Shown: positions 3,176 through 55,920 of the stretch, in pieces
How positions within the stretch are numbered: position 1 is the first letter of the stretch
Layout: every line of letters starts with the position of its first letter
Made by a program: the position numbers and the translations under genes
Notes under the pieces: model-generated
Databases searched by the model: none
The model's input: the letters and a program-made list of their open reading frames with translations, nothing else
What the model was told of the DNA's origin: nothing
Assembly (NCBI GenBank): GCA_951406725.2
Contig: OX597838.1
Coordinates: 16,368,001-16,432,000, forward strand
Origin: Octopus vulgaris
Taxonomy: Eukaryota
DNA length: 64,000 bases
Reading direction: 5' to 3'

Positions 3176-3940
3176 TATTGTGGGGCTTGGGTGAAAGTAG
3201 ATTGGGAAACACTAGTGTAAACCTATTTAAAAGTGACAATCCTTATGGCAGTCACCACAGATGAAGATGAAGTCATCACTGTATGAAGTTGAAACCATCC
3301 ACTTCCTGAATTACTGATTTTTACCAAACCAGAAATGGTCAACCTCTAAATTCAACAAATATTAAATTTACTTTAAGTAAATGAACTACCAAGTACCTAT
3401 ACATTAGTATAATTGATACAAGTTCATTAATACTGTACTGTGCAAGGTACCGGTAAACTAGTCTAGCAGCCACAGGAATTTGAAGTTCCTACTCATAAAT
3501 TAGTACAGATTATAAGTGGTTTCAGATCATCAGTGTCTGGAAAGTTGTTGTTCCTGTATTTAAACTGAAATGAGTAAGAGTGTTATACTAAGCTGAGTAC
3601 TAATTAAGCCGAGTAATTGGAATAATGTTGAGCTAACTAATAGATTATCAAGGTCAATCACTTTTTATTTTTAAGGTTATCGGTATTAATGAACTTGTAT
3701 CAATTATACTAATGTATAGGTACTTGGTAGTTCATTTACTTAAAGTAAATTTAATATTTGTTGAATTTAGAGGTTGACCATTCCTGGTTTGGTAAAAATC
3801 AGTAATTCAGGAAGTGGATGGTTTCAACTCCATACAGTGATGACTTCATCTTCATCTGTGGTGACTGCCATAAGGATTGTCACTTTTAAAAAGGTTTACA
3901 CTAGTGTTTCCCAATCTACTTTCACCCAAGCCCCACAATA
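3176..3940. repeat. Long inverted repeat (258-bp arms, ~250-bp spacer)
   Basis: 3176-3433 is the reverse complement of 3683-3940 with about 3 mismatches seen. Confidence 0.95.
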
Positions 3941-4154
3941 TAACCAGCACTGATTTGTTATGACATTTCATATCCAAATACATCTAATGTAAACAATGTA
4001 ATCACAGAGAGAAAATTAGGTAATCGGTGTATATGCATATTTCAGGAGTTCTTGCTCCTTCATCAGCACCCATCCAACCCGTTAACCATCCACAAAATCA
4101 TTGCTTAAATAGCCACTAAATATAGTGGTATAACACTATTAGAGATACCAATTT

Positions 4155-9963: not shown

Positions 9964-10442
9964 GAAAACATCACCCTGGGTCCTGCATGCAAAGTTGGGC
10001 CTCCTATAAGCTTTAATTCACTGAAAACGTCACTCTGGGTCCTGCATGCAAAGTTGAGCCTCCTATAAGCTTTAATTCACTGAAAACGTCACCCTGGGTC
10101 CTGTATGCAAAGTTGGGCCTCCTATAAGCTTTAATTCACTGAAAACGTCACCCTGGGTCCTGCATGCAAAGTTGGGCCTCCTATAAGCTTTAATTCACTG
10201 AAAACATCACCCTGGGTCCTGCATGCAAAGTTGGGCCTCCTATAAGCTTTAATTCACTGAAAACGTCACCCTGGCTTCCTGCATGCAAAGTTGGGCCTCC
10301 TATAAGCTTTAATTCACTGAAAACGTCACCCTGGGTCCTGCATGCAAAGTTGGGCCTCCTATAGGCTTTAATTCACTGAAAACGTCACCCTGGGTCCTGC
10401 ATGCAAAGTTGGGCCTCCTATAAGCTTTAATTCACTGAAAAC
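9964..10442. repeat. 59-bp minisatellite, 8 copies
   Basis: Unit GAAAACGTCACCCTGGGTCCTGCATGCAAAGTTGGGCCTCCTATAAGCTTTAATTCACT; no spacers. Confidence 0.95.
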
Positions 10443-24711: not shown

Positions 24712-25452
24712 TGATGGTGGCACATAAAAAGCATCAGTAATGGTGGCACATAAAAAAGCACCTGTAATGGTGGCACATAAAAAGCACCGGTAATGGTGGC
24801 ACATAAAAAGCACCAATGATGGTGGCACATAAAAACCACTGGTAATGGTGGCACATAAAAAGCACCGGTAAAGGTGGCACATAAAAAGCACCGGTAAAGG
24901 TGGCACATAAAAAGCACCGGTAATGGTGGCACATAAAAGGCACCGGTAATGGTGGCACATAAAAAGCACCGGTGATGGTGGCACATAAAAAGCACTAGTG
25001 ATGGTGGCACATAAAAAGCACTGGTGATGGTGGCACATAAAAAGCACTGCTGATGGTGGCACATAAAAAGCACTGGTGATGGTGGCACATAAAAAGCACT
25101 GCTGATGGTGACACATACCTTTTTCTTTATTACCCACAAGGGGCTAAACACAGAGCGGACAAACAAGGACAGACATAGGCATTAAGTCGATTACATCGAC
25201 CCCCAATACGTAACTGGCACTTATTTAATCGACCCCGAAAAGATGAAAGGCAAAGTTGACCTCGGCGGAATTTGAACTCAGAACGTAGCTGCAGACAAAA
25301 TACCGCTAAGCATTTCGCCCGGAGTGCTAACGATTCTGCCAGCTCGCCGCCATAGTAACATAAAAAGCACCGGTAATGGTGGCACATAAAAAGCACCGGT
25401 AATGATGGCACATAAAAAGCACCGGTGATGGTGGCACATAAAAAGCACTGGT
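24712..25452 (+). repeat. 26-bp minisatellite derived from the family R 3' UTR, interrupted by SINE S1
   Basis: Unit ATGGTGGCACATAAAAAGCACCGGTA, ~15 copies then ~4 copies; continues into a family R tail at 25460-25610. Confidence 0.9.
25120..25350 (-). mobile_element. SINE family S1
   Basis: Full-length homology to 16947-17178. Confidence 0.85.
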
Positions 25453-26840: not shown

Positions 26841-27699
26841 ATACACTTACATACACATACATGTACATATATAGATATAAAAATATCCATACATACACAC
26901 ATGTACATAAATATATATATATATACACACACACATATACATACATACACACACATATGTTCATACATATGTACACACACTCAGTGAAAAAAAGGAAAAC
27001 AGATATCAAATGATGCGATGAAAACTTCAACAACAAATTTTGATGTCAAAAGGGTGAAGCTCAGCTCAGAGATGGATCAAAATTTTTTCAAGATCAAATG
27101 AGTCTGAATATTATTATTCTACAATAATACTCAAAGAGAGGGACATTCTATGTACACAGAAATGCATGAGCCGAAGATAAGGAGAAATTAAAGGGATCGA
27201 ATCCTAACATAAAGAGACAACAGTAAAGAGGTTAATCATACGGAAACACCTATACTTCTCTAACATGGAAGTTTACTGCGAATTCAATAGTCTGTTGGTT
27301 GACATTAACAAGAAATGTCAAGAAGACAACTCTGTAACATTTATTAGGATTCACTTCAGCTATTCCAAGACAAATGCCAAATTCTTTGCTGCTGCTGCTG
27401 TTGTTGTTGCTTGTCTTTTGGTTAATCTAATATAAATGTAGGAATGACCTGAACAGACAGACATCTGACACAGCTGTAGCCGTCCAAAATATTCATTCAA
27501 CTCTTGTAATCATGTCCACCACATCTTCATCGTATATGTGTTAGCCAAAAATTTTGGATTAAAAATTTTGAGGTCCTTATACAAACATACATTACATTAT
27601 ATATATATATATATGTAGGTCCCGGGTTGAGTCGGGGTTAACCACAGTAAATAAGGTACTCAATACATAGCAGAGTAAAGTAATTTATTTTATAGAAGG

Positions 27700-27750
27700 A
27701 GTTTCTACAGGACTAGAACTGTTTCATTCAGATGAAATCTTCAGGAAGCT
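27700..27750 (-). ncRNA. Type I hammerhead ribozyme motif (H1)
   Basis: Minus strand AGCTTC-CTGAAGA-t TTC atct GAA t-GAA-ACAG ttctagtc CTGT-A-GAAACT; stem I 5/6 paired, 4-bp stem III, GUA site. Confidence 0.6.
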
Positions 27751-27863
27751 GGCTGTCTAAATAAGTTCTGGTATTTATGCATTTAGGCAGATTTAATGGA
27801 GTGGTGGTGGGGGACGTTTTTTGGGTAGGTTGGTATTTAGGAGATAAATAGGGCACAAGCTAT

Positions 27864-27894
<31 letters not shown>

Positions 27895-29446
27895 CGACGG
27901 ACTTCTTTCAGTTTCCATCTATCAAATCCACTCACAAGGTTTTGGTCGGCTCGAGGCTATTAGTAAAAGACACTTGCCCGAGACACCAGGAATTTTATTT
28001 AGGGAAGTTTGGCTGCAACATTCAGCAAAACAAGCAACTATAGTAGAAACTGTATCAGTGTGTGTGTGTGTGTGTGTGTATGTGTTTCTAGATATTGTTA
28101 TTCAGGCAGAGAGAAAAAAATGAAAAACAACCAGTTGTTACTGTTTTGAATTCCTTCGTTAACCCTGACCAAAAAAGACCCATGATCAAAAGCATTCCAG
28201 CCATGATCAACCCATCTTTTGTTGGGTTTGTAGAACTACACTATTTAACCTTTTCATGACCACGTTCCAAATGCCAGATTAATACTGTCGGTTATTTTAC
28301 TAAATTCTTCATTATTTTCAGAATTAATTAAAAACACAAACAGTGTACTTCAAATAGAAATACAGAAACAAAAGGGTTAAAGTATATTATGACCAATATA
28401 CTTTTCTGACCTGCCTGTCCATCTAAGTCCGTCAGTTTTGGTAGTAGCAATTGGCAATGAAGACATTACAGGATGTGGTGACAAGATGGGTGTAATTCCT
28501 AAATATCTCAATATTTAAAAGAAAAAAAAAGAAAAAAGTTTGCTATTTAGTCAGTCATAATTAACTATATATTGAAAACAAATAAGTCAGGCTGACTAGA
28601 TGGTATCTGCTAAGAATACATGACATAACGCTACATTAGGGCAAAACTGAGATGTCCTCAGACAAAAGTGAAACTGAAAAATCAAATTGAAACCAAGCAA
28701 CTCCTAAGTTGTTCCCAATAAGTAGTGTCTACTCTAAGCTGCTTTTCCCTTCTATTTCCTAATCAATGTGTATATAAAAGCTAACAGAATGCTTGGAACA
28801 TCAGAAAAATTGCTTTGCAGTATTTCTTCAACCTCTTTACATTTTCAGTTCAAATCCTGCCAAGGTCAACTCTGCCTTTTATGTTTTCAAGTTCAGTAAA
28901 ATAAGGTACCAGTCAAGTACTGGGGTCACTGGTAGGAACTTTTTCCTCTCAAAATAACGAGCCTTGTGTCAACTAGCAGAATTGTTAGTGTCCAAAAATA
29001 GTGTTTCTTCCAAGTTCAGAACCTGCCAAGGTCAACTTTGCTTTCATCCCTCTAGGATAGATACAATAAAGTACCAGTCAAGTACAGGGTTTGATGTAAT
29101 CAATTAACCCTTTCTGCTTAAAATTTGTGGCCTTCTACCAAAATTTGAAATTATTATTATTATTATTATTATAAATTTACTATATGCAAATTTACTTAGC
29201 AGAGATGTTACTCTGAAGTTTGATGGCAACAAGTCTCAATCTCAAGAATCTGTCTTGGGGTTCTTGCAAAATACGGAATGGCACTTTTCAACAGGTTGAC
29301 AATACATGCCTCAATTCCTGTAGCCCTCAGCCTCTTAGGTAACAGTTTTGTTGTTGTGTTGAGTACAGCAATTACCACAAGAGCAATTTTCACCCTTGTG
29401 CTCCTCAATCTCTTCTCTCTATCAGGATCCTGATATTTCTCAGCTA

Positions 29447-29634
29447 TGGCACGTAAAAAACACCCACTACACTCACGGAGTGGTTGGTGTTAGGAAGGGC
29501 ATCCAGCTGTAGAAACACTGCCAAATCAGACTGGAGCCTGGTGCAGCCTCCATGGCTTACCAGACCCCGGTCGAACCGTCCAACCCATGCTAGCATGGAA
29601 AACGGACGTTAAATGATGATGATGATGATGATGA
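29447..29634 (+). mobile_element. RTE-LINE 3' end (family R)
   Basis: Family R motif and (GAT)n tail. Confidence 0.8.
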
Positions 29635-30697
29635 TTTTGGTTTCTTTGATATCCACTCAACTATCATATGAGATTACAAGGTCAATGATGTTACACTATT
29701 CATTCTGTCACTCCATAGTCTCTTTGCTTCATCAGCCAGTGCAAAGAAATCTCATGTGATCCTGTAATTATCATTTACCATGGAAGCCTCTGATTTGTGT
29801 TCATACCTTTATCCTATCACTTCAAATCCATGAACTTGGCTCACATTCCAATGCACTCTTTTACCAACACAGTCATGCTAGCATTTATACTCTTTTTATG
29901 TTAGCTTACAACACTTGCAGGGGAGACAGTTAATACTTTAATCCCCTTTTCTACACATTCTGTATTTGTTGTCTGTCATTAACAAATTCATTCTAATGGC
30001 TTGTTTCTGTGTGGCTATAATTAGCAATTCAGTTACTTGTTTCTGGTCTCCATCTTTCAATCAGCACAAGCTTTTCACTTCAAACCTCTTTGGTTTGTTA
30101 CATGAATTGGCCATGTAGTTACTTCTCTTTCTAGTTATTTGTCCTATATTCAATGTTTCACAGGTTTCTTCCATGTTTCTAGCTGCAGATAACAGTCTTT
30201 CCTCACCATAAAATTTTTATATGGCACCTTGGTTTTAGAATATAATGCAATAAAATGTTCCCCATGATGGATTCAATTGCACTAGGAACATCCAATGCAG
30301 AGGTTGCAAATAACCACAATGATCTCACACACACATACTTTATATATATACACTTTATACATATAACTTTCTATATATATACACACAGACACACACACAC
30401 ACATATATATATAAATGGGTAGTATAACATGTGGATTCAGAGGATGTGTGGCTATCAAAGAAAGCTCCTCTTACAAACTCACCTATCAGTTGTGAAACAG
30501 CTGTAAGCCTATGGAAGTCACATGGCTATATATATATATATATATATACAAAAAGCAATAAAGATTCAAGTTAATTTAAATGAATTTACTTGAATATGGT
30601 ACCTAACTTAGATGCACCAAAAAAAACTATACTGATTTAACAATACAGTAATGTGGGGTGATTATAAGCGAGAATGAAGCAACAAGAATGGATAGGT

Positions 30698-30788
30698 TTT
30701 TAGTACAATCGTTTCATACAAGGACAGGTTTTATTAAAAGTTGCAAAAATTACAGCATATAAACGTGTCCCGTACTCATCAGCTAAAA
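30698..30788 (-). ncRNA. Hammerhead ribozyme motif H2 (mirror copy)
   Basis: Reverse complement of 31384-31474. Confidence 0.7.
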
Positions 30789-31383
30789 TACATGTGAGTT
30801 CTCTAGACATCTTAGTGGTTGAGGCTATACTCATGAAGTAATGTAGATAATTAAGTAACATAAACAGATTTCAAAAGTTCATTAAAGTTCTTTAAAGATG
30901 ATGTACAGTCTTATCACAGAATTTTAAAAAGTCTTAATAGCATCACAGAGAAGGTGACCTAATCCATAGTGCACATATGAATTTCCAGAGATATGATGAG
31001 GGATTACATACTCACAGAAGACAAATTTATCCATTGTTAATTACAACGAGGTGGGTTTCAATTCCTGCTTATAAGCTAATATATAATTATATAATGCTAA
31101 TAAGCAGGAATTGAAACCCACCTCGTTGTAATTAACAATGGATAAATTTGTCTTCTGTGAGTATGTAATCCCTCATCATATCTCTGGAAATTCATATGTG
31201 CACTATGGATTAGGTCACCTTCTCTGTGATGCTATTAAGACTTTTTAAAATTCTGTGATAAGACTGTACATCATCTTTAAAGAACTTTAATGAACTTTTG
31301 AAATCTGTTTATGTTACTTAATTATCTACATTACTTCATGAGTATAGCCTCAACCACTAAGATGTCTAGAGAACTCACATGTA

Positions 31384-31474
31384 TTTTAGCTGATGAGTAC
31401 GGGACACGTTTATATGCTGTAATTTTTGCAACTTTTAATAAAACCTGTCCTTGTATGAAACGATTGTACTAAAA
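31384..31474 (+). ncRNA. Type I hammerhead ribozyme motif H2 with long stem II
   Basis: TTTTAG-CTGATGA-GTACGGGACA...TGTCCTTGTAT-GAA-AC gatt GT-A-CTAAAA; perfect 6-bp stem I; predicted cleavage after 31468. Confidence 0.75.
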
Positions 31475-32210
31475 ACCTATCCATTCTTGTTGCTTCATTC
31501 TCGCGTATATATATATATATGTATATTCACCTTTTATACACCCTGACTGGTTTTACACACACACACACAAACATATTTATAAATACATGGTTAAAGCTTA
31601 GCTGTTACCCACAAGTGGCAATGACCTGGTAGCATACACCAGACTATCATCACAAATGGTTTTTGGTGCTTGTATAGTCATGAGCAGACATAGACACTTC
31701 CTCAACCTCTCGGTCTTCCTTCTCTAGATCCAGTGGAACAGCAAGGATGTCACAGCTACAGGAAGAGAGAGTCACACAAGCAGTTAACAGATACTTAATT
31801 TTTAACCAAGTAGACTGGAGTAGCTTAAGGACATAACATGTTGCCCAGGCAAGAAACGAGCATATGCCCTTACAGTTATAAGGATAACACTTCTAACCAC
31901 AACACCATGTACTTTCAAGTGTGTTTGCGTGAGTGTTTCCGTTCCTTTCAAGTGTTATTATAACAACTTTGCTAAAACTTGTACCTCTCGCTTCGTCTTT
32001 TCCTTGATTTTGCTCATTACCTCATATATACTCTTTTACTTGTTTCAATCATTTGACTGCGACCATGCTGGAGCACCAGTCAGACAGTGACATTGGTTTC
32101 GTGCTTATAAAGTGCTTGGCTGTAAAGGTGACTCATCATGTGTGTGTGTGTGTGTGTATAACTATATATACATGTATATATTCATACATGTACATATGCA
32201 TATACACAAC

Positions 32211-32251
<41 letters not shown>

Positions 32252-32324
32252 TATATTCATACATGTATATATAAGTATATATTATACAAAAATACATATA
32301 CATATATATACATTCTTTTATGTT

Positions 32325-32545
32325 TTTATTTGTTTCAGTCATTTGACTGTGGCCATGCTGAAGCACTGCCTGAAGTCAAACAAATCAACCCCAGCACTTA
32401 TACTTTGTAAGCCTAGTACTTATTCTATCGTTTTTGTTTTTTTTTGCCGAACCACTAAGTTACAGGGACATAAACACACCAACATCGGTTGCCAAGTGAT
32501 GGTGGTGCAACAAACACAGACACACAAACATATACACATACACAC

Positions 32546-32624
<79 letters not shown>

Positions 32625-32773
32625 GATGGACTTCTTTCAGTTTCCATCTATCAAATCCACTCACAAGGCTTTGGTCGTCTTGAGGCTATAGTAGAAGACG
32701 CTTGTCCAAGGTATTATGCAGTGGGACTGAATACGGAACCATTTGGTTGGTAAGCAAGCTACTTACCACACAG

Positions 32774-32776
<3 letters not shown>
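32325..32776 (-). mobile_element. SINE family S2
   Basis: Homology to other S2 copies; long internal (TA)n. Confidence 0.8.
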
Positions 32777-32820
<44 letters not shown>

Positions 32821-32852
32821 TTTATTTAAAGCAGCAGAAAATTCAACAATAT

Positions 32853-32890
32853 CTGTTACTCTGAGTTTCTCGTTGCCGTTCATCAGACAG
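32853..32890 (-). ncRNA. Hammerhead ribozyme motif H3 (mirror copy)
   Basis: Reverse complement of 32915-32952. Confidence 0.6.
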
Positions 32891-32914
32891 TTTTTGCTAG
32901 AATTCTAGCAAAAA

Positions 32915-32952
32915 CTGTCTGATGAACGGCAACGAGAAACTCAGAGTAACAG
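32915..32952 (+). ncRNA. Minimal type I hammerhead ribozyme motif H3
   Basis: CTGT-CTGATGA-a CG gcaa CG a-GAA-ACT cag AGT-A-ACAG; GNRA-capped 2-bp stem II; GUA site at 32946-32948. Confidence 0.65.
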
Positions 32953-33055
32953 ATTTTGTTGAATTTTCTGCTGCTTTAAATAAAGCATATTACTCTACCA
33001 CTGGTATTTGAGTACTCTTTTTTTCCACCTTGTTTCACATTTATGTGTTTACTCC

Positions 33056-33095
<40 letters not shown>

Positions 33096-33153
33096 CACAG
33101 ATGCACACATATACTTACACACACACTCACACATATACTTACACACACATATA

Positions 33154-33850
33154 CAGGGTGGCCATTAAAGCAACGGACCATACTGCAATATGTGAAATTA
33201 CTAACATTCTCCTTTTTTTATTTCTTTTCACAGCTGCCGATATTATTCACAAACCAATCCTTATTGGGTGGAGGCAGATAATCAACAAGGCAGGGGGAAA
33301 GTAATGATGTGGTGTGTGGTGTGGGATTTTCCACAATCAAGTAATTGGACCATTTTATTTTGAGTGCTCTGTGACAGGTGATTCGTATCTGGACAGGCCT
33401 GGCAACAAGAGGATGCCTCATGTGCATTCACTTGGAAAGGGGGAAAAAAATCCTGTCTGGTTTCAACAGGATGGGTCTCAGGATGGGGTTCATGATTTTC
33501 CGAATGAACATTTTCTAGGGAGATGGCTCAGGTGTCGCGGGCCAATTGAATGGGCACCAAGGTCCCCAGATTTAACTCCCGTGGACTTTTTTCTTCTGGG
33601 ACTACATTGAATCCCTTGTGTATTCTGAAAAGATTCGCAACCAAGGACATCTTCTTCAAAGAATTGTTGAAGTGTGTGAACAAGGCAACGGCAATGGAGA
33701 CCTATTTGAGAAGGTTCATCGCAAGTTCAAATTCCCTATGAACACTTGTTTAGAGCTACATGGCCAACACTTTGAACATTTGTAATGGATTACCAACTTC
33801 ATTGCTAATAAAGCATACTTGATATCTCACGTGACTTTGTGGTCACCCTG
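33154..33850 (+). mobile_element. Internally deleted Tc1/mariner (Tc3-like) element
   Basis: TIR CAGGGTG...CACCCTG after TA; remnant VWCGI...IGPFYF...WFQQDG...WAPRSPDLTPVDFFL. Confidence 0.85.
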
Positions 33851-33967
33851 TGACCCCATATATTTCTAGAAGGTTGATTGTTAAGGCCGGTCAGAGAGTG
33901 ATATTGGTTTCATGCGTATAAAGTGCTTGGCTATAAAGATGACTCATCGTGTGTGTGAGTATGTGTG

Positions 33968-34227
33968 ACTGGCCTCTGTGCCGGTGGCACGTAAAAGCAC
34001 CATCCGTTTGTGGCCGTTTGCCAGCACCATCTGGCACCTGTGCGGGTGGCACGTAAAATGCACCCACTACACTCGCGGAGTGGTTGGCGTTAGGAAGGGC
34101 ATCCAGCCGTAGAAACACTGCCAGATTAGACTGGGCCTGATGCAGCCTTCTGGCTTCACAGACCCCAGTTGAACCATCCAACCCATGCTAGCATGGAAAA
34201 CGGACGCTAAATGATGATGATGATGAT
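33968..34227 (+). mobile_element. RTE-LINE 3' end (family R)
   Basis: Family R motif; an inverted copy lies close by at 34287-34422. Confidence 0.8.
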
Positions 34228-36390
34228 TCATACATGTACATATGTACATACAGAACATTATATATATATATATTCATACATGTATATCATCATCATCATC
34301 GTTTAACATCCGCTTTCCATGCTAGCATGGGTCGGACGATTTGACTGAGGTCTGGCGAACCAGATGGCTGCACCAGGCTCCAATCTTGATCCGGCAGAGT
34401 TTCTACAGCTGGATGCCCTTTCTAGTATATATAAATATATATTATATAAAAATACATATTTATTCATACATGCACATATGTATATACAATGTATAAATAT
34501 ACACACACATACACAAGAGTGTGTGTGTGTGAGAGAGAGAGGGTGCCAGTAATATTGAACTTCACAACGAATTAACTCTTCTACTCTCAGTAATAGTCAA
34601 ACCAATAAATGGTCAGTTGTTATTCTTAAAGGTCCTTTAAAATAACATTTCAATAGCATCCACACACACACATAGATGCTTGTATATGTACAAATATGTT
34701 TGTATATTTATCTACGTTTGTGCATAATTTGATGTATGTCTAGAATAAGTTAAACACGAAATAAAAAGGGTTTCTAATTTAGGTACAAGGCCAGCAATTT
34801 TGCTGACAGGTATTAGTTCATTACACTGATACCTCAGTAGATGACTGGTAAAATAGATCTCAGTGGGATTCGAAACCATAACATTTTAAAGAGTCAGAAG
34901 AAATACCTATTTCTTTACTACCCACAAGGGGCTAAACATCGAGTGGACAAACAAGGACAAACGTATTAAGTCGATTACATCGACCCCCAGAGCGTAACTG
35001 GTACTTAATTTATCGACCCCGAAAAGGATGAAAGGTAAAGTCGACCTCGGCGGAATATACCGCAAATCCTTTTTTCCAAAGAAATTCTAGACTAAACTGC
35101 TAAGCAACCATTTACATTTAAATTACATATTCATAAACTATGGGGAAGTGAAACTGGTTTCACTTCCGAGTTGACATAAAATACATTTTACCGACACTGT
35201 TAATCATCACTAATAGAATTTCCCTTCCCGTTAGGACAGCATCAAGTTGCCAGACAGAGCAACGAAATCGCCTTCAAAGCACACCCAACCATCTTTATAA
35301 CGACACACTGGATATTGTTACTCGGCATACTCTTATTCCAGAACAGTGTATGGCAGCAGCTGAACTGCCCTTTGATCGTAGGTCTGTCTGCTCTATCGGG
35401 ACTGACATGGACTAAACAGAAATAACTCTGCTCTATTAATTTGCCATTATATAACTATGTAAAGAAGAAAAAAAATCCTCATTAACATACATTGATTTTA
35501 TCTTATCTCTTCATAGATAAAGAAAACGAAGATATTGAATATAGATTTCTTAATAGCTCTGATGTCACTTAAATGCTTTATATAAGGAAATGAAATTACA
35601 CTCAACAGTGAGCCGAGAGACTAGTCACTGCATAACAGATATAACATCTTCCTTTCATGTACCTCTGTGCTTTTATAATCTCTTATGGGAGGTTGTGGCC
35701 ATGTGAAACCATAGTGTGATGCTTAAGACTCCTAAATGTTTCACACTGTTCATATTCTGCTGCAAAAGTCAAGGCTTCCAACAGAAATTTGGCAAGGCGG
35801 AACAGATTACTTTCAGGTCCTGGAAGGAGGGGATCCTATCAAAATCGAGGTTTTGTTTGTTTGTTTAAGAAAGGTACCCACAGTTATCTTTCCTAGGCTC
35901 TCAGGCCCCATACTGATGCACCGGTCGACCTCCCTCACTCTAATGTTAAAGGTTGCGATCTTATTTACAACAGTCTACGACTGAGGGCAAGGCCGAAATT
36001 TGTAGGTGAAACGAGGGCAGTGATTTTTACCTATTACTGTTGTAGGTGAAAAATAACGATAACTATAAACTTGGCTGTATTTGAACTCAGAACTTCCAGA
36101 TACATCTAAATGCTGCAAAGCAATCATATAAAAAATGACTAAATATGTTCCATATATATATATATATATAAATATGTTCCATATATATATATATGCATGC
36201 ATGCAAATATATAAGAATAATATAACACAAGAATGGGACATATCAGACTTTAATAGTGATTATATTTGTTTTCTGCACCACACACCAGCCTTTATATTCA
36301 TATACCATTATACAAGATAATTCTATTACGAGGTTTTGTCCGAATTATACTATATATATATAAATATTATAGTGGGGTACGCTGGTTTAT

Positions 36391-36451
36391 GGGGGTACCC
36401 TGGGCTTCTCGCTCATAAGGGGTTTAGCCTTACGGCGTATCGTCAGACCCC
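36391..36451 (-). ncRNA. Hammerhead motif H4 (variant mirror copy)
   Basis: Minus strand GGGGT-CTGACGA...CGCCGTAAGG...CCTTATGAGCG a-GAAGC CCAGG GTA-CCCCC; carries GAAA to GAAG change. Confidence 0.5.
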
Positions 36452-36492
36452 ACTTTGAAATATTTTAAAGAGGTCTCAGGCCAGCAGTGTTT

Positions 36493-36553
36493 GGGGTCTG
36501 AAGATACGCCGTAAGGCTAAACTCCTTATGAGAGAGAAACCCAGGGTAACCCC
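36493..36553 (+). ncRNA. Type I hammerhead ribozyme motif H4
   Basis: GGGGT-CTGAAGA...CGTAAGG ctaaact CCTTATG...GAA-ACCC a GGGT-A-ACCCC; perfect stem I; GUA site at 36546-36548. Confidence 0.7.
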
Positions 36554-36676
36554 ATAAATCGATCTACCCCACTATAATATTGACTACTCTACATCTTAGA
36601 GTGCGCTTCTCCTCCGGATTTATGCATTTCTACAAACGATCATATATATTTTGAGATAGATAGATATATGTATATA

Positions 36677-38678: not shown

Positions 38679-39310
38679 AGATAGAGAGAAGGTGGTAGAC
38701 AAAATAGGAGATTAAAAAAACATTTTTAACACAAAATATAGGGCCGCGAATCTCAGTAAGGGGCAGTTGATTTAATCGGCCCTTATCCCTACATGTGAAT
38801 GGCATTTATATTCCGGACCATGTTAGAACAAATAGCCAAGACGATTTGGGTGGAATTAGAACTTATAATGCGTGTTTGAAAGGGCGTGTTTGAATAACGA
38901 AGGCTATTAGGGCCCCTGAAGGATGGAAAAGCTAAGTCGATCTTGATGGGATTGGAACTCAAAATGTATTAGAAAGTAGATATTTAAATAAGATAGAGAG
39001 AAGGTGGTAGACAAAATAGGAGATTAAAAAACCATTTTTAACACAAAATATAGGGCCGCGAATCTCAGTAGGTAAGGAAGGGGCAGTTGATTTAATCGGC
39101 CCTTATCCCTACATGTGAATGGCATTTATATTTCGGACCATCCTAGAACAAATAGCCAAGACGATTTGGGTGGAATTAGAACTTATAATGCGTGTTTGAA
39201 AGGGCGTGTTTGAATAACGAAGGCTATTAGGGCCCCTGAAGGATGGAAAAGCTAAGTCGATCTTGATGGGATTGGAACTCAAAATGTATTAGGAAGTAGA
39301 TATTTAAATA
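38679..39310. repeat. Tandem duplication (312 + 320 bp)
   Basis: 38679-38990 is repeated at 38991-39310 with few differences. Confidence 0.95.
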
Positions 39311-39949
39311 AGGAAGGGTATTAAAGCATTTTTTTTTATTGATCTTTATTCTGCTATCTACTGCCCTGATAGAATATAAAGAATGACATCACATTGGATA
39401 ATAATAATAATAATAATTAATGATGATTTTTTAGAGTATATTTTTCAGCAGAGCTTAAAAGAAAACAACGTTGTCGGCGATATAAATATTTTCTTCATTT
39501 TGCCTTGAGAATAATATGATTAGGATAATTATAGGTTCAATACTAAGTAATCGAATGGTCGTCCAACGAGATGTGTGTATGTATATGTGTGTCTTTTTTC
39601 GTTTGACATACCAGAAATATGTGTAGTATACATACATTTTCGGTCTGACATACCGGATGTATATATATATATATAGGGCTTTATCTTTAAAAAAATTCCT
39701 GCATTTGCTTACAAAGCCACAGCAAAGAAAGAAAAAGAACACACAGAATTTAATATAATATATAAATAATATAACATATTTATATTTAAAAAATTCATAG
39801 GAAAGCGATCAGGATAAGAAATGAAAATTATTCAGTCACTATAGAAAGATATCTGACAGAAGGAACTGTCAATAGTAAAACAGGTGACCGTACAAATTCC
39901 TTATCGTTTAACCCTAAGAACGATTGATTTCCGTTCACCACGATTAACG

Positions 39950-54820: not shown

Positions 54821-55207
54821 GGATCTTTTCCCTTTGAACGGCAGATCGAGAAATTATTTTTTTGTAACTAAACACTTTCAGACTTCGGACACTGGTAGAA
54901 TGTGTCATATAAAACATCTTTTACTCTTAGCGTTGTTGAGAAAAGTTTATATTTTCAAAATTATTTTGTGTTAAAGTTGTCGTATTTCGGTACTTTCCAC
55001 CAATCAATGACGTGTATTCAGCTGAATTAAAATTACTGCCGTTGTTTGTCAACAACAACTATTGGTGGTGTATATTTTGTTTGTCACTGTTATTTATGAC
55101 ATCATTCATGCGTTTGTACTGGTTTTAGCTAGAAGGTTTTAGGGTTAGGGTTAGGGTTTTAGTGTTAGGTTTTTAGGGTTAGGGTTAGGGTTTTAGGGTT
55201 AGGGTTA
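54821..55207 (+). mobile_element. Dispersed element with (TTAGGG)n-like 3' tract
   Basis: Flanked by direct repeat GAG[G/A]CCATGAGTC at 54808-54820 and 55208-55220. Confidence 0.75.
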
Positions 55208-55920
55208 GAGACCATGAGTCTAATCTTTAGCAACAATGGAAACAATTTGGAACATGTTTCTATCTTAGTAAACCTCAACAGCAAAGCATAACACACTTAT
55301 ACTTGGGAAATTTTCCAGTGTTGTAAGTAATAGATCTTTGCTTGACATTTGAAACCAGAACTCATTTTTTTCATACCAGAGTCTTTAAAATGGACTGATG
55401 GTGTTATCAAGAAGCTGGTTATTCATTTTCTTGAATAGACATCAAAACTGACAGATTGATGTCAGTATAAAAACTGACCATTTAAAATTCACAAATGCAC
55501 TTGATGACATCACCAGGAAGCTTAACCCATGCTAACGCTGTCCGTGGCAATCAGTCAACTTCAATATAAAAAATCTTTCAAGAATGCAAAGACAAAAGAA
55601 CAGGACAGACAGAGAGTAGGATAGACAAAGAGGAACAAAGAACAAGAACACATATCAAGCATTACATCTGCTATTAATCACGTATCAGTTGTTTGATGTG
55701 ACAGATTTGTCGAATATGAAGAGCTTCAACATTGAAAAGAGCTGAGATGCTTCAAACTTGAGCACTACCCAATGGCAGATGACACTTACATTCCACTCAC
55801 TCACTCACTCACTCTCTCTCTCTCTCTCTCTCTCTCCCTTTCCCCCTCTCCCTCTGTCTAGCTATCTCTTTCTCTCGTGCTCTCACTGTATCTAAAGTCC
55901 ACAACCACACCGCTTTATCG

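Follow-up and report, generated by a model that had tools for sequence, protein, structure and literature searches.

What are four different hammerhead ribozymes doing within 9 kb of octopus DNA, three of them in mirror-image pairs, and how did the mirror shape arise? The question is raised by a 64,000-nucleotide stretch of Octopus vulgaris (GenBank assembly GCA_951406725.2, contig OX597838.1, positions 16,368,001 to 16,432,000), here called the window, in which an original prediction, made from the letters alone, had proposed a cluster of unrelated, protein-free ribozyme retroelements. The four hammerhead motifs are genuine, and they are the 5′-truncated pseudo-LTR (pLTR; LTR, long terminal repeat) ends of Penelope-like element (PLE) retrotransposons. 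More specifically, we consider it probable that they are the truncated ends, inserted in (TA)n, of coding PLE families that bear Hydra-clade motifs, and that the mirror shape comes from two primings of reverse transcription per insertion.

Four hammerheads and their parent elements

The elements fall into four families, A to D, with the following features in the window.

27615–27865, minus strand: family A, a lone 251-nucleotide (nt) 5′-truncated PLE end with tail, flanked by (TA)n on both sides and starting 121 nt upstream of the core
27706–27744, minus strand: family A hammerhead core (CUGAAGA, 12-nt stem II region, GAAA, stem III of 4 base pairs (bp), GUA; stem I of 6 bp with one mismatch)
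27615–27684, minus strand: family A tail, about 70 nt, which in the parent is 5′ leader and ends 46 nt before the ATG
30549–31504, both orientations: family B, a head-to-head pair of 5′-truncated PLE ends inside (TA)n; parent at locus L156
30663–31076 and 31096–31509: family B arms, 414 nt each (repeat finder), with about 19 nt of AT-rich filler between them
30549–30667, minus strand: family B tail of 119 nt, carried by the left arm and not the right; its counterpart in the parent stops 54 nt short of the ATG
30704–30782, minus strand: family B core of the left arm (descriptor scan)
31390–31468, plus strand: family B core of the right arm, with a long stem II and a self-complementary stem III
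32820–33057, plus strand: family C, a 166-nt perfect palindrome (centre 32902/32903) whose right arm continues into a 72-nt tail, the whole inside (TA)n; parent at locus L202
32857–32886, minus strand: family C core of the left arm (descriptor scan)
32919–32948, plus strand: family C core of the right arm, with a 2-bp stem II, a GCAA loop and a palindromic stem III
32986–33057, plus strand: family C tail, which in the parent ends 68 nt before the ATG
36363–36641, plus strand: family D, an old head-to-head pair whose right arm has a tail of about 60 nt; GIY-YIG remnants lie upstream of other copies
36363–36452 and 36492–36581: family D arms, 90 nt at 89% identity (repeat finder)
36498–36548, plus strand: family D core of the right arm, with one stem II mismatch in the window copy

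Hammerhead cores were sought with a descriptor scan, controlled by dinucleotide shuffles (500 for positions 27600–36600 and 100 for the window), and all four motifs of the original prediction were located. The scan returned five matches within 27600–36600 (one in A, and one on each strand in B and in C), where the shuffles averaged 0.004, and six in the window against 0.02; A, B and C carry the type I features, namely CUGANGA, GAAA and UH with three helices and an open-ended helix I. Family D was missed because its plus-strand copy has the stem II mismatch and its left-arm core, which starts at 36446 on the minus strand, reads GAAG for GAAA. Both D copies in the window are decayed, and the hammerhead is intact in other copies of the family. 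The three inverted pairs that had been predicted were recovered by the repeat finder as B, C and D, with A single in the window, but a ribozyme on both strands holds only for B and C, D being decayed. The original prediction had stem I pairing in each family; the window copy of A carries one stem I mismatch that is absent from most A copies. The description of the families as unrelated is accurate for their DNA, where the best between-family BLAST match was 15 of 17 nt over GAAA and stem III, but not for their descent: the A, B and C proteins are 38–43% identical to each other. Short or atypical PLE hammerheads are expected to escape Rfam-type models. No hammerhead was among the 150 of 375 Rfam matches listed for the window, where microRNA-like hairpins on microsatellites dominate the E-value ranking, and three parent loci gave no gathering-level hammerhead match.

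Stem covariation, which the original prediction had named as a check, was found in the B group and more weakly in D, in alignments whose rows are related copies, chosen with a core pattern in which much of stem III is already set. Among 15 B-group variants, 95.1% of cells are paired and 7 of 15 pairs change on both sides, values reached in 0–3 of 500 shuffles; among 31 D variants, 91.8% of cells are paired and 7 of 20 pairs change on both sides, with paired cells and score as high in 0 of 500 shuffles and the double-change pair count as high in 138 of 500. Copies of A and C vary too little for the comparison.

Stem III is self-complementary in all four families, as would suit the dimer cleavage that had been predicted; the calculated self-dimers have energies of −5.8 to −12.8 kcal/mol, and the monomer hairpins 0 to −1.4 kcal/mol, with only A having a weak one. 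Hammerhead dimer cleavage was reportedly described in 2017 by Lunse et al. Taking as our basis the dimer cleavage of minimal hammerheads in PMC4209133, we consider it likely that the family ribozymes act as dimers on the parent RNA, which they would cut by way of the palindromic stem III. The presence of a ribozyme on both strands is probably a by-product, because the RNA of the palindrome is predicted to fold into one long hairpin: in C this has 81 bp and −144.8 kcal/mol, and in such a read-through transcript the ribozymes would be hidden.

A separate pattern concerns the bases that follow the cut site in family A, and is confounded by subfamily age: at loci L352–L381, 8 of 31 short arms lose 1–2 nt within four bases after the cut, a loss that takes in the fourth base each time and is invariably confined to one arm, with none among five long arms; elsewhere the counts were 1 of 10 short and 0 of 45 long arms, and there were none in 100 C arms. 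Two long A arms, the window copy (27702) included, have a substitution at the post-cut position instead.

Full-length copies with reverse transcriptase (RT) and GIY-YIG endonuclease, also among the original prediction's proposed checks, were found for B, C and, in a sister subfamily, A. The assignment to type I hammerheads of the PLE kind is supported. Each parent has one open reading frame (ORF) encoding a telomerase-like RT and, at the C terminus, a GIY-YIG domain. The B parent (L156) has a frame of 953 amino acids (aa) in a 4,664-nt unit, with near-identical intact pLTR–ORF–pLTR copies at L156, L158, L159 and L170; the C parent (L202) has a 711-aa frame in a 3,365-nt unit, with intact frames at L202 and L203; and the A parent of the sister subfamily (L227) has a 713-aa frame in a 4,784-nt unit. 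Direct repeats lie around the ORF at these spacings, with the ribozyme in both pLTRs, and the order of parts is ORF, long 3′ untranslated region (UTR), ribozyme, short end, tail and the ATG of the next unit. From the ribozyme cut site to the short end there are 22 nt in A, 36 nt in B and 37 nt in C, the parent tails are 70, 119 and 71 nt long, and the ATG follows after a further 46, 54 and 68 nt. In the window's own A subfamily (L231), RT and endonuclease lie in broken frames upstream of the A end, and 13 of 20 loci with endonuclease fragments (the query locus included) carry a D end downstream in the same orientation. With coding parents for three families and endonuclease remnants upstream of the fourth, the short pieces derive by truncation from coding elements, and the idea of protein-free ribozyme retroelements is not upheld.

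The RT was not named by a sequence search of the PDB. A fold of the C protein predicted from 34 aligned relatives, with a mean confidence (pLDDT) of 90.5, has a telomerase RT as its best PDB match (E 1.8e-9); the fold from the single sequence reached a pLDDT of 33.9. As to clade, RWK is present in B and C and RWR in A, and all three frames have DKT in place of DKG, the linker CxCx5C, and CxxC..E and CxH around the conserved E and N of the endonuclease. By these motifs A, B and C appear to belong to the Hydra clade as it is defined in section 11 of PMC8557442. No CxxC lies between the two GIY-YIG strands of the frames, where the CCHH motif of other PLE endonucleases, absent from Hydra, may be placed. 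The Nematis clade had been considered, and was dropped for Hydra after the motifs were compared with the clade definitions.

Two observations touch on the B proteins. Long Asn-rich insertions lie between RT and endonuclease in the B frame (L156:3001–5862, residues about 480–810), which stays open. A related PLE family (L160–L163, L166, L169) has an 836-aa frame, an RT segment 65% identical to that of B and many intact copies; a scan of about 10 kb around its ORF gave no hammerhead of its own, and it may have an atypical ribozyme or none.

Mirror-image pairs and short copies

Pairs were sampled by ribozyme pattern in chromosome order, with an intact ribozyme needed on at least one arm. The two members of a pair meet at their truncated 5′ ends; one arm ends 22–37 nt past the cut site and the other continues through a tail of 60–119 nt. 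Of 61 head-to-head pairs, 57 had a tail on exactly one arm (A 14/14, B 9/9, C 32/35, D 2/3), for which the binomial p against one half is 2e-13, and the B, C and D pairs of the window each follow this pattern. Family A, single in the window, forms inverted pairs elsewhere (14 pairs). A larger set picked by similarity gave the same one-tail pattern, its two-tail cases lying at internal tandem junctions. Within 260 nt downstream, (TA)4 or longer was present at 36/36 A, 31/31 B, 100/105 C and 12/19 D arms, as compared with 27–38% at random points. These counts bear out the inverted pLTR structures and the (TA)n association of the original prediction. They also make it scarcely credible that the palindromes are assembly artefacts or chance motifs: long perfect inverted repeats beside microsatellites are hard to assemble, but an assembler is not expected to produce a one-tail asymmetry across 61 loci, nor would either explanation fit the shuffle control, the compensatory changes, or D arms that differ by 11%.

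The geometry of the pairs, together with in vitro work on an anole PLE (PMC11167929), in which two adjacent RT start sites bound the tail, both strands are cut and a dimer is predicted, leads us to a two-primer model. The RT–endonuclease would nick both strands of (TA)n, priming reverse transcription once from each. One complementary DNA (cDNA) would start at the short end of the RNA and the other at the tail end, both would copy toward the RNA 5′ end, and the two cDNA ends would be joined through 1–4 nt of microhomology or through filler. Overlaps of 1–4 nt are present at the junctions of 12 of 21 short C palindromes.

A second arm could also be made by fold-back, with the end of a PLE cDNA snapping back on a short palindrome, copying itself and stopping at a fixed point before the tail. 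Pair centres do recur on 4-nt palindromes (CTAG in C, AGCT in A), variants are common to both arms, and self-priming has been proposed for inverted PLE junctions in a rotifer (PMC3846280). Nonetheless, we think this route rather unlikely: many B and C pairs have very unequal arms, with either one the longer, filler is present at some junctions (the B centre among them), and single arms that run into (TA)n without a tail equal tailed ones in frequency, which fits independent priming at the short end.

It is also worth considering whether the short pieces might be non-autonomous, protein-free ribozyme elements, similar to retrozymes or to miniature inverted-repeat transposable elements, that spread as palindromes with PLE proteins supplied in trans. 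All 40 scored matches to the whole C palindrome run end to end at 93–100%, centres recur, and animal retrozymes are described as derived from PLE pLTRs in a preprint (10.64898/2026.07.22.740005). However, the end-to-end search selected for the same centre, and C copies sampled by pattern have many centres, with arms reaching from 0 to more than 400 nt upstream of the core. Short units arranged head to tail in arrays were not observed, whereas retrozymes are tandem repeats of 150–450 bp (PMC7229834), and the RNA of the C palindrome is the one predicted to hide its ribozyme in a hairpin. Among 30 same-centre C palindromes, 20 could be assessed; in 8 of these both arms carry shared subfamily variants, and no internal variant confined to one arm occurs repeatedly. 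Same-centre copies thus appear to have been made afresh from different templates, the C palindrome's clonal spread is not supported, and we regard a non-autonomous origin as quite improbable.

The two-primer model also bears on where the short copies end. Priming in the downstream pLTR would give long copies with scattered truncation, and cDNA synthesis begun in the upstream pLTR would reach the RNA 5′ end and run off it after some 60–85 nt, giving the stumps of A and C; the template RNA's 5′ end would then sit just before the ribozyme. With ungapped 5′ extents, which are shortened by indels, 40 of 100 C arms start at most 18 nt before the core, with 28 of these at 12–18 nt, and only 7 start at 19–100 nt, the rest being long, and 22 of 30 A arms start within 7 nt upstream of the core. 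The window C arms, of about 83 nt and without a loop, both start 16–17 nt upstream. It seems possible, and we propose it tentatively, that two fixed start sites per (TA)n insertion leave one tail per pair and that the tiny palindromes are run-off copies, marking an RNA 5′ end at the edge of the hammerhead.

The same pile-up could arise if RT dropped off or switched template after unwinding stem I, or if 5′–3′ decay stopped at a protein-bound ribozyme. Consistent with this, A copies end inside the 5′ strand of stem I (0–7 nt), and B, which has another ribozyme shape, has no pile-up. In contrast, the C peak at 12–18 nt lies 8–14 nt clear of stem I, and the C ends stop at an A that lies between pyrimidines, in a stretch similar to an initiator. 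The Penelope pLTR has an internal TATA-less promoter (PMC2377424). Taken together, these points make drop-off or decay somewhat unlikely.

Contigs of four runs that we guess to be RNA cover the C element in 29–30 of 30 bins, in a form that cannot show ends, strand or level. In run X5, a single contig joins letters that resemble a template-switch adaptor to the element at L202:5167, a few bases from the start of the C core. The contig is a weak hint of an RNA 5′ end at the C ribozyme core.

Several points weigh against the readings preferred here. On the side of the coding parents, no intact frame was found for the window's own A subfamily and no full-length copy for D, where endonuclease remnants were all that was found; Pfam gave no RT match in the PLE proteins and GIY-YIG only below threshold (E 0.006); and the Hydra placement is made by motifs. 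As to the pairs, four of the 61 depart from the tail rule, one of them at an internal tandem junction, and variants common to both arms also fit fold-back copying or later conversion from arm to arm. As to the 5′ ends, none of 30 B arms starts less than 21 nt upstream of the core, so B has no pile-up, and no reliable extent could be obtained for D; for these two reasons the run-off step is not general. Sampling by intact ribozyme hides shorter copies; when the arms were anchored downstream instead, 8 of 104 in C were scored as truncated inside the core, in several cases because of point changes. Furthermore, the anole ribozyme mutants still inserted in vitro (PMC11167929). Should the run-off reading of A and C be true, it would be the fold of the ribozyme, and not its cut, that defines the start of the template.

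Copy number and surroundings

Across the 2.8 Gb of genome searched, exact matches to the ribozyme patterns number 7,132 for A (a degenerate pattern, over subfamilies), 1,323 for B, 3,710 for C and 87 for D, and the reversed control patterns gave none for any family. The best copies are 96–99% (A), 99–100% (B), 93–99% (C) and 76–90% (D) identical. In 1.02 Mb of fetched flanks, where (TA)n may be more frequent than in the genome at large, there were 46 off-target hammerhead motifs, about 8 of them variants of the target families or doubtful, leaving about 38. At the resulting density of about one hammerhead of other families per 25–30 kb, some 250–480 windows of 64 kb are expected to hold four within 8.85 kb; for the window itself, with four of its five hammerheads in 8.85 kb, p is 0.039. 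The clustering that the original prediction had singled out is thus expected hundreds of times and needs no special cause, because hammerheads of other families occur about every 25–30 kb. The genome holds a large unannotated set of hammerheads. At least ten further families with a palindromic stem III were seen in 1 Mb of flanks (L031, L158, L161, L146, L138, L202, L205, L245, L231 and others). The fifth hammerhead of the window, at 3940–4150 with its core at 4066–4030 on the minus strand, belongs to a separate old repeat family with 1,794 first-look candidates, the best copies of which are 80–85% identical.

The surroundings contain other repeats. Directly after element C, at 33155–33853, lies a decayed Tc1/mariner-like DNA transposon with transposase remnants that include a WAPRSPDL-type motif. 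Tandem arrays with units of 59, 26 and 320 nt and an interstitial TTAGGG run occupy 9964–10442, 24714–25117, 38679–39312 and 55135–55208. Near D copies elsewhere, a BTB-like single-exon host frame of 692 aa (L212:2191–4269) and a frame of a Ty3-like LTR retrotransposon (L214:257–4118) were named by eye. No host exon was recognised among frames of at least 110 aa (16–49 kb) or at least 55 aa (26.9–30.3 kb), a result that does not bear on the suggestion that the cluster lies in a host intron.

Comparison with known elements

Hammerheads in pLTRs, opposite-strand pairs, tails, (TA)n targets and the Hydra clade itself are already published, and what is new here is the count of one tail per pair and the sharp 5′ boundary in A and C. 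No printed one-tail count and no pile-up of 5′ ends at a ribozyme were found in the literature searched, outside which lie most subscription papers and the Repbase and Dfam entries. Two open questions about PLEs are touched by the counts, namely the way inverted ends arise and the purpose that the ribozyme serves.

Animal non-LTR retrozymes (PMC7229834; preprint 10.64898/2026.07.22.740005) are likewise short, non-coding, PLE-related and equipped with a type I hammerhead. Retrozymes are, however, head-to-tail tandem repeats that yield circular RNAs, and the pieces described here arose by truncation of coding elements and are single or head-to-head: ribozyme matches are single, head-to-head, or 3.4–4.8 kb apart around an ORF. 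The Penelope elements of the rotifer Adineta vaga (Arkhipova et al. 2013, PMC3846280) share head-to-head inverted pLTRs, palindromic junctions and a tail on one of the two, and their ORFs have Asn-rich insertions, as in B. Unlike the octopus families, they have few copies and visible target-site duplications, and no (TA)n targeting is described in the portions available. In PAc, a Poseidon element of the green anole (Frangieh et al. 2024, PMC11167929), two element ends also bound a tail downstream of the ribozyme and the target is AT-rich. PAc belongs to another clade, and its ORF starts inside the ribozyme, whereas here the ribozyme and tail lie wholly in the 5′ leader, 46–68 nt before the ATG; no count of one tail per pair is stated in the accessible part of that report.

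The minimal hammerheads of metazoan PLEs (Cervera and de la Peña 2014, PMC4209133) share the type I topology within pLTRs, the palindromic helix III, the many divergent families per genome, mostly as single truncated copies, and the opposite-strand pairs 100–700 bp apart. As compared with these, all four families here keep a helix III of 2–4 bp, which A could close as a monomer, and the stem II region of B spans about 60 nt.

The closest relatives are in the Hydra clade (Craig et al. 2021, PMC8557442), which has the RT and C-terminal GIY-YIG, RWK, DKT, the CxCx5C linker, CxxC and CxH, a canonical hammerhead near the 3′ end, a (TA)n target and an inverted 5′-truncated copy. Its supplement includes Hydra-1_Obim from Octopus bimaculoides, with hammerhead and (TA)n target; the ribozyme listed for it (as Hydra-1_oBim) differs from all four in the window, and that of Hydra-2_aMil has a stem I identical to that of family C and a stem III nearly so. 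Hydra elements there are generally shorter than 3 kb, with tails of 30–40 bp, as against units of 3.4–4.8 kb and tails of 60–119 nt here, the greater unit length being due to long repeat-rich 3′ UTRs; B differs further by its long Asn-rich insertion. A 2026 octopus repeat annotation (PMC13282606) reports 31 recently active Penelope-like families, with ribozymes and Hydra unmentioned in the accessible main text. If the readings given here are true, the young octopus Hydra elements with intact frames offer a ready system for studying inverted-repeat formation and microsatellite targeting. A little-sampled clade, of which PMC8557442 lists one octopus family, is abundant and recently active in this genome, with more than 12,000 exact ribozyme matches from three families, thousands of copies and near-identical intact frames.

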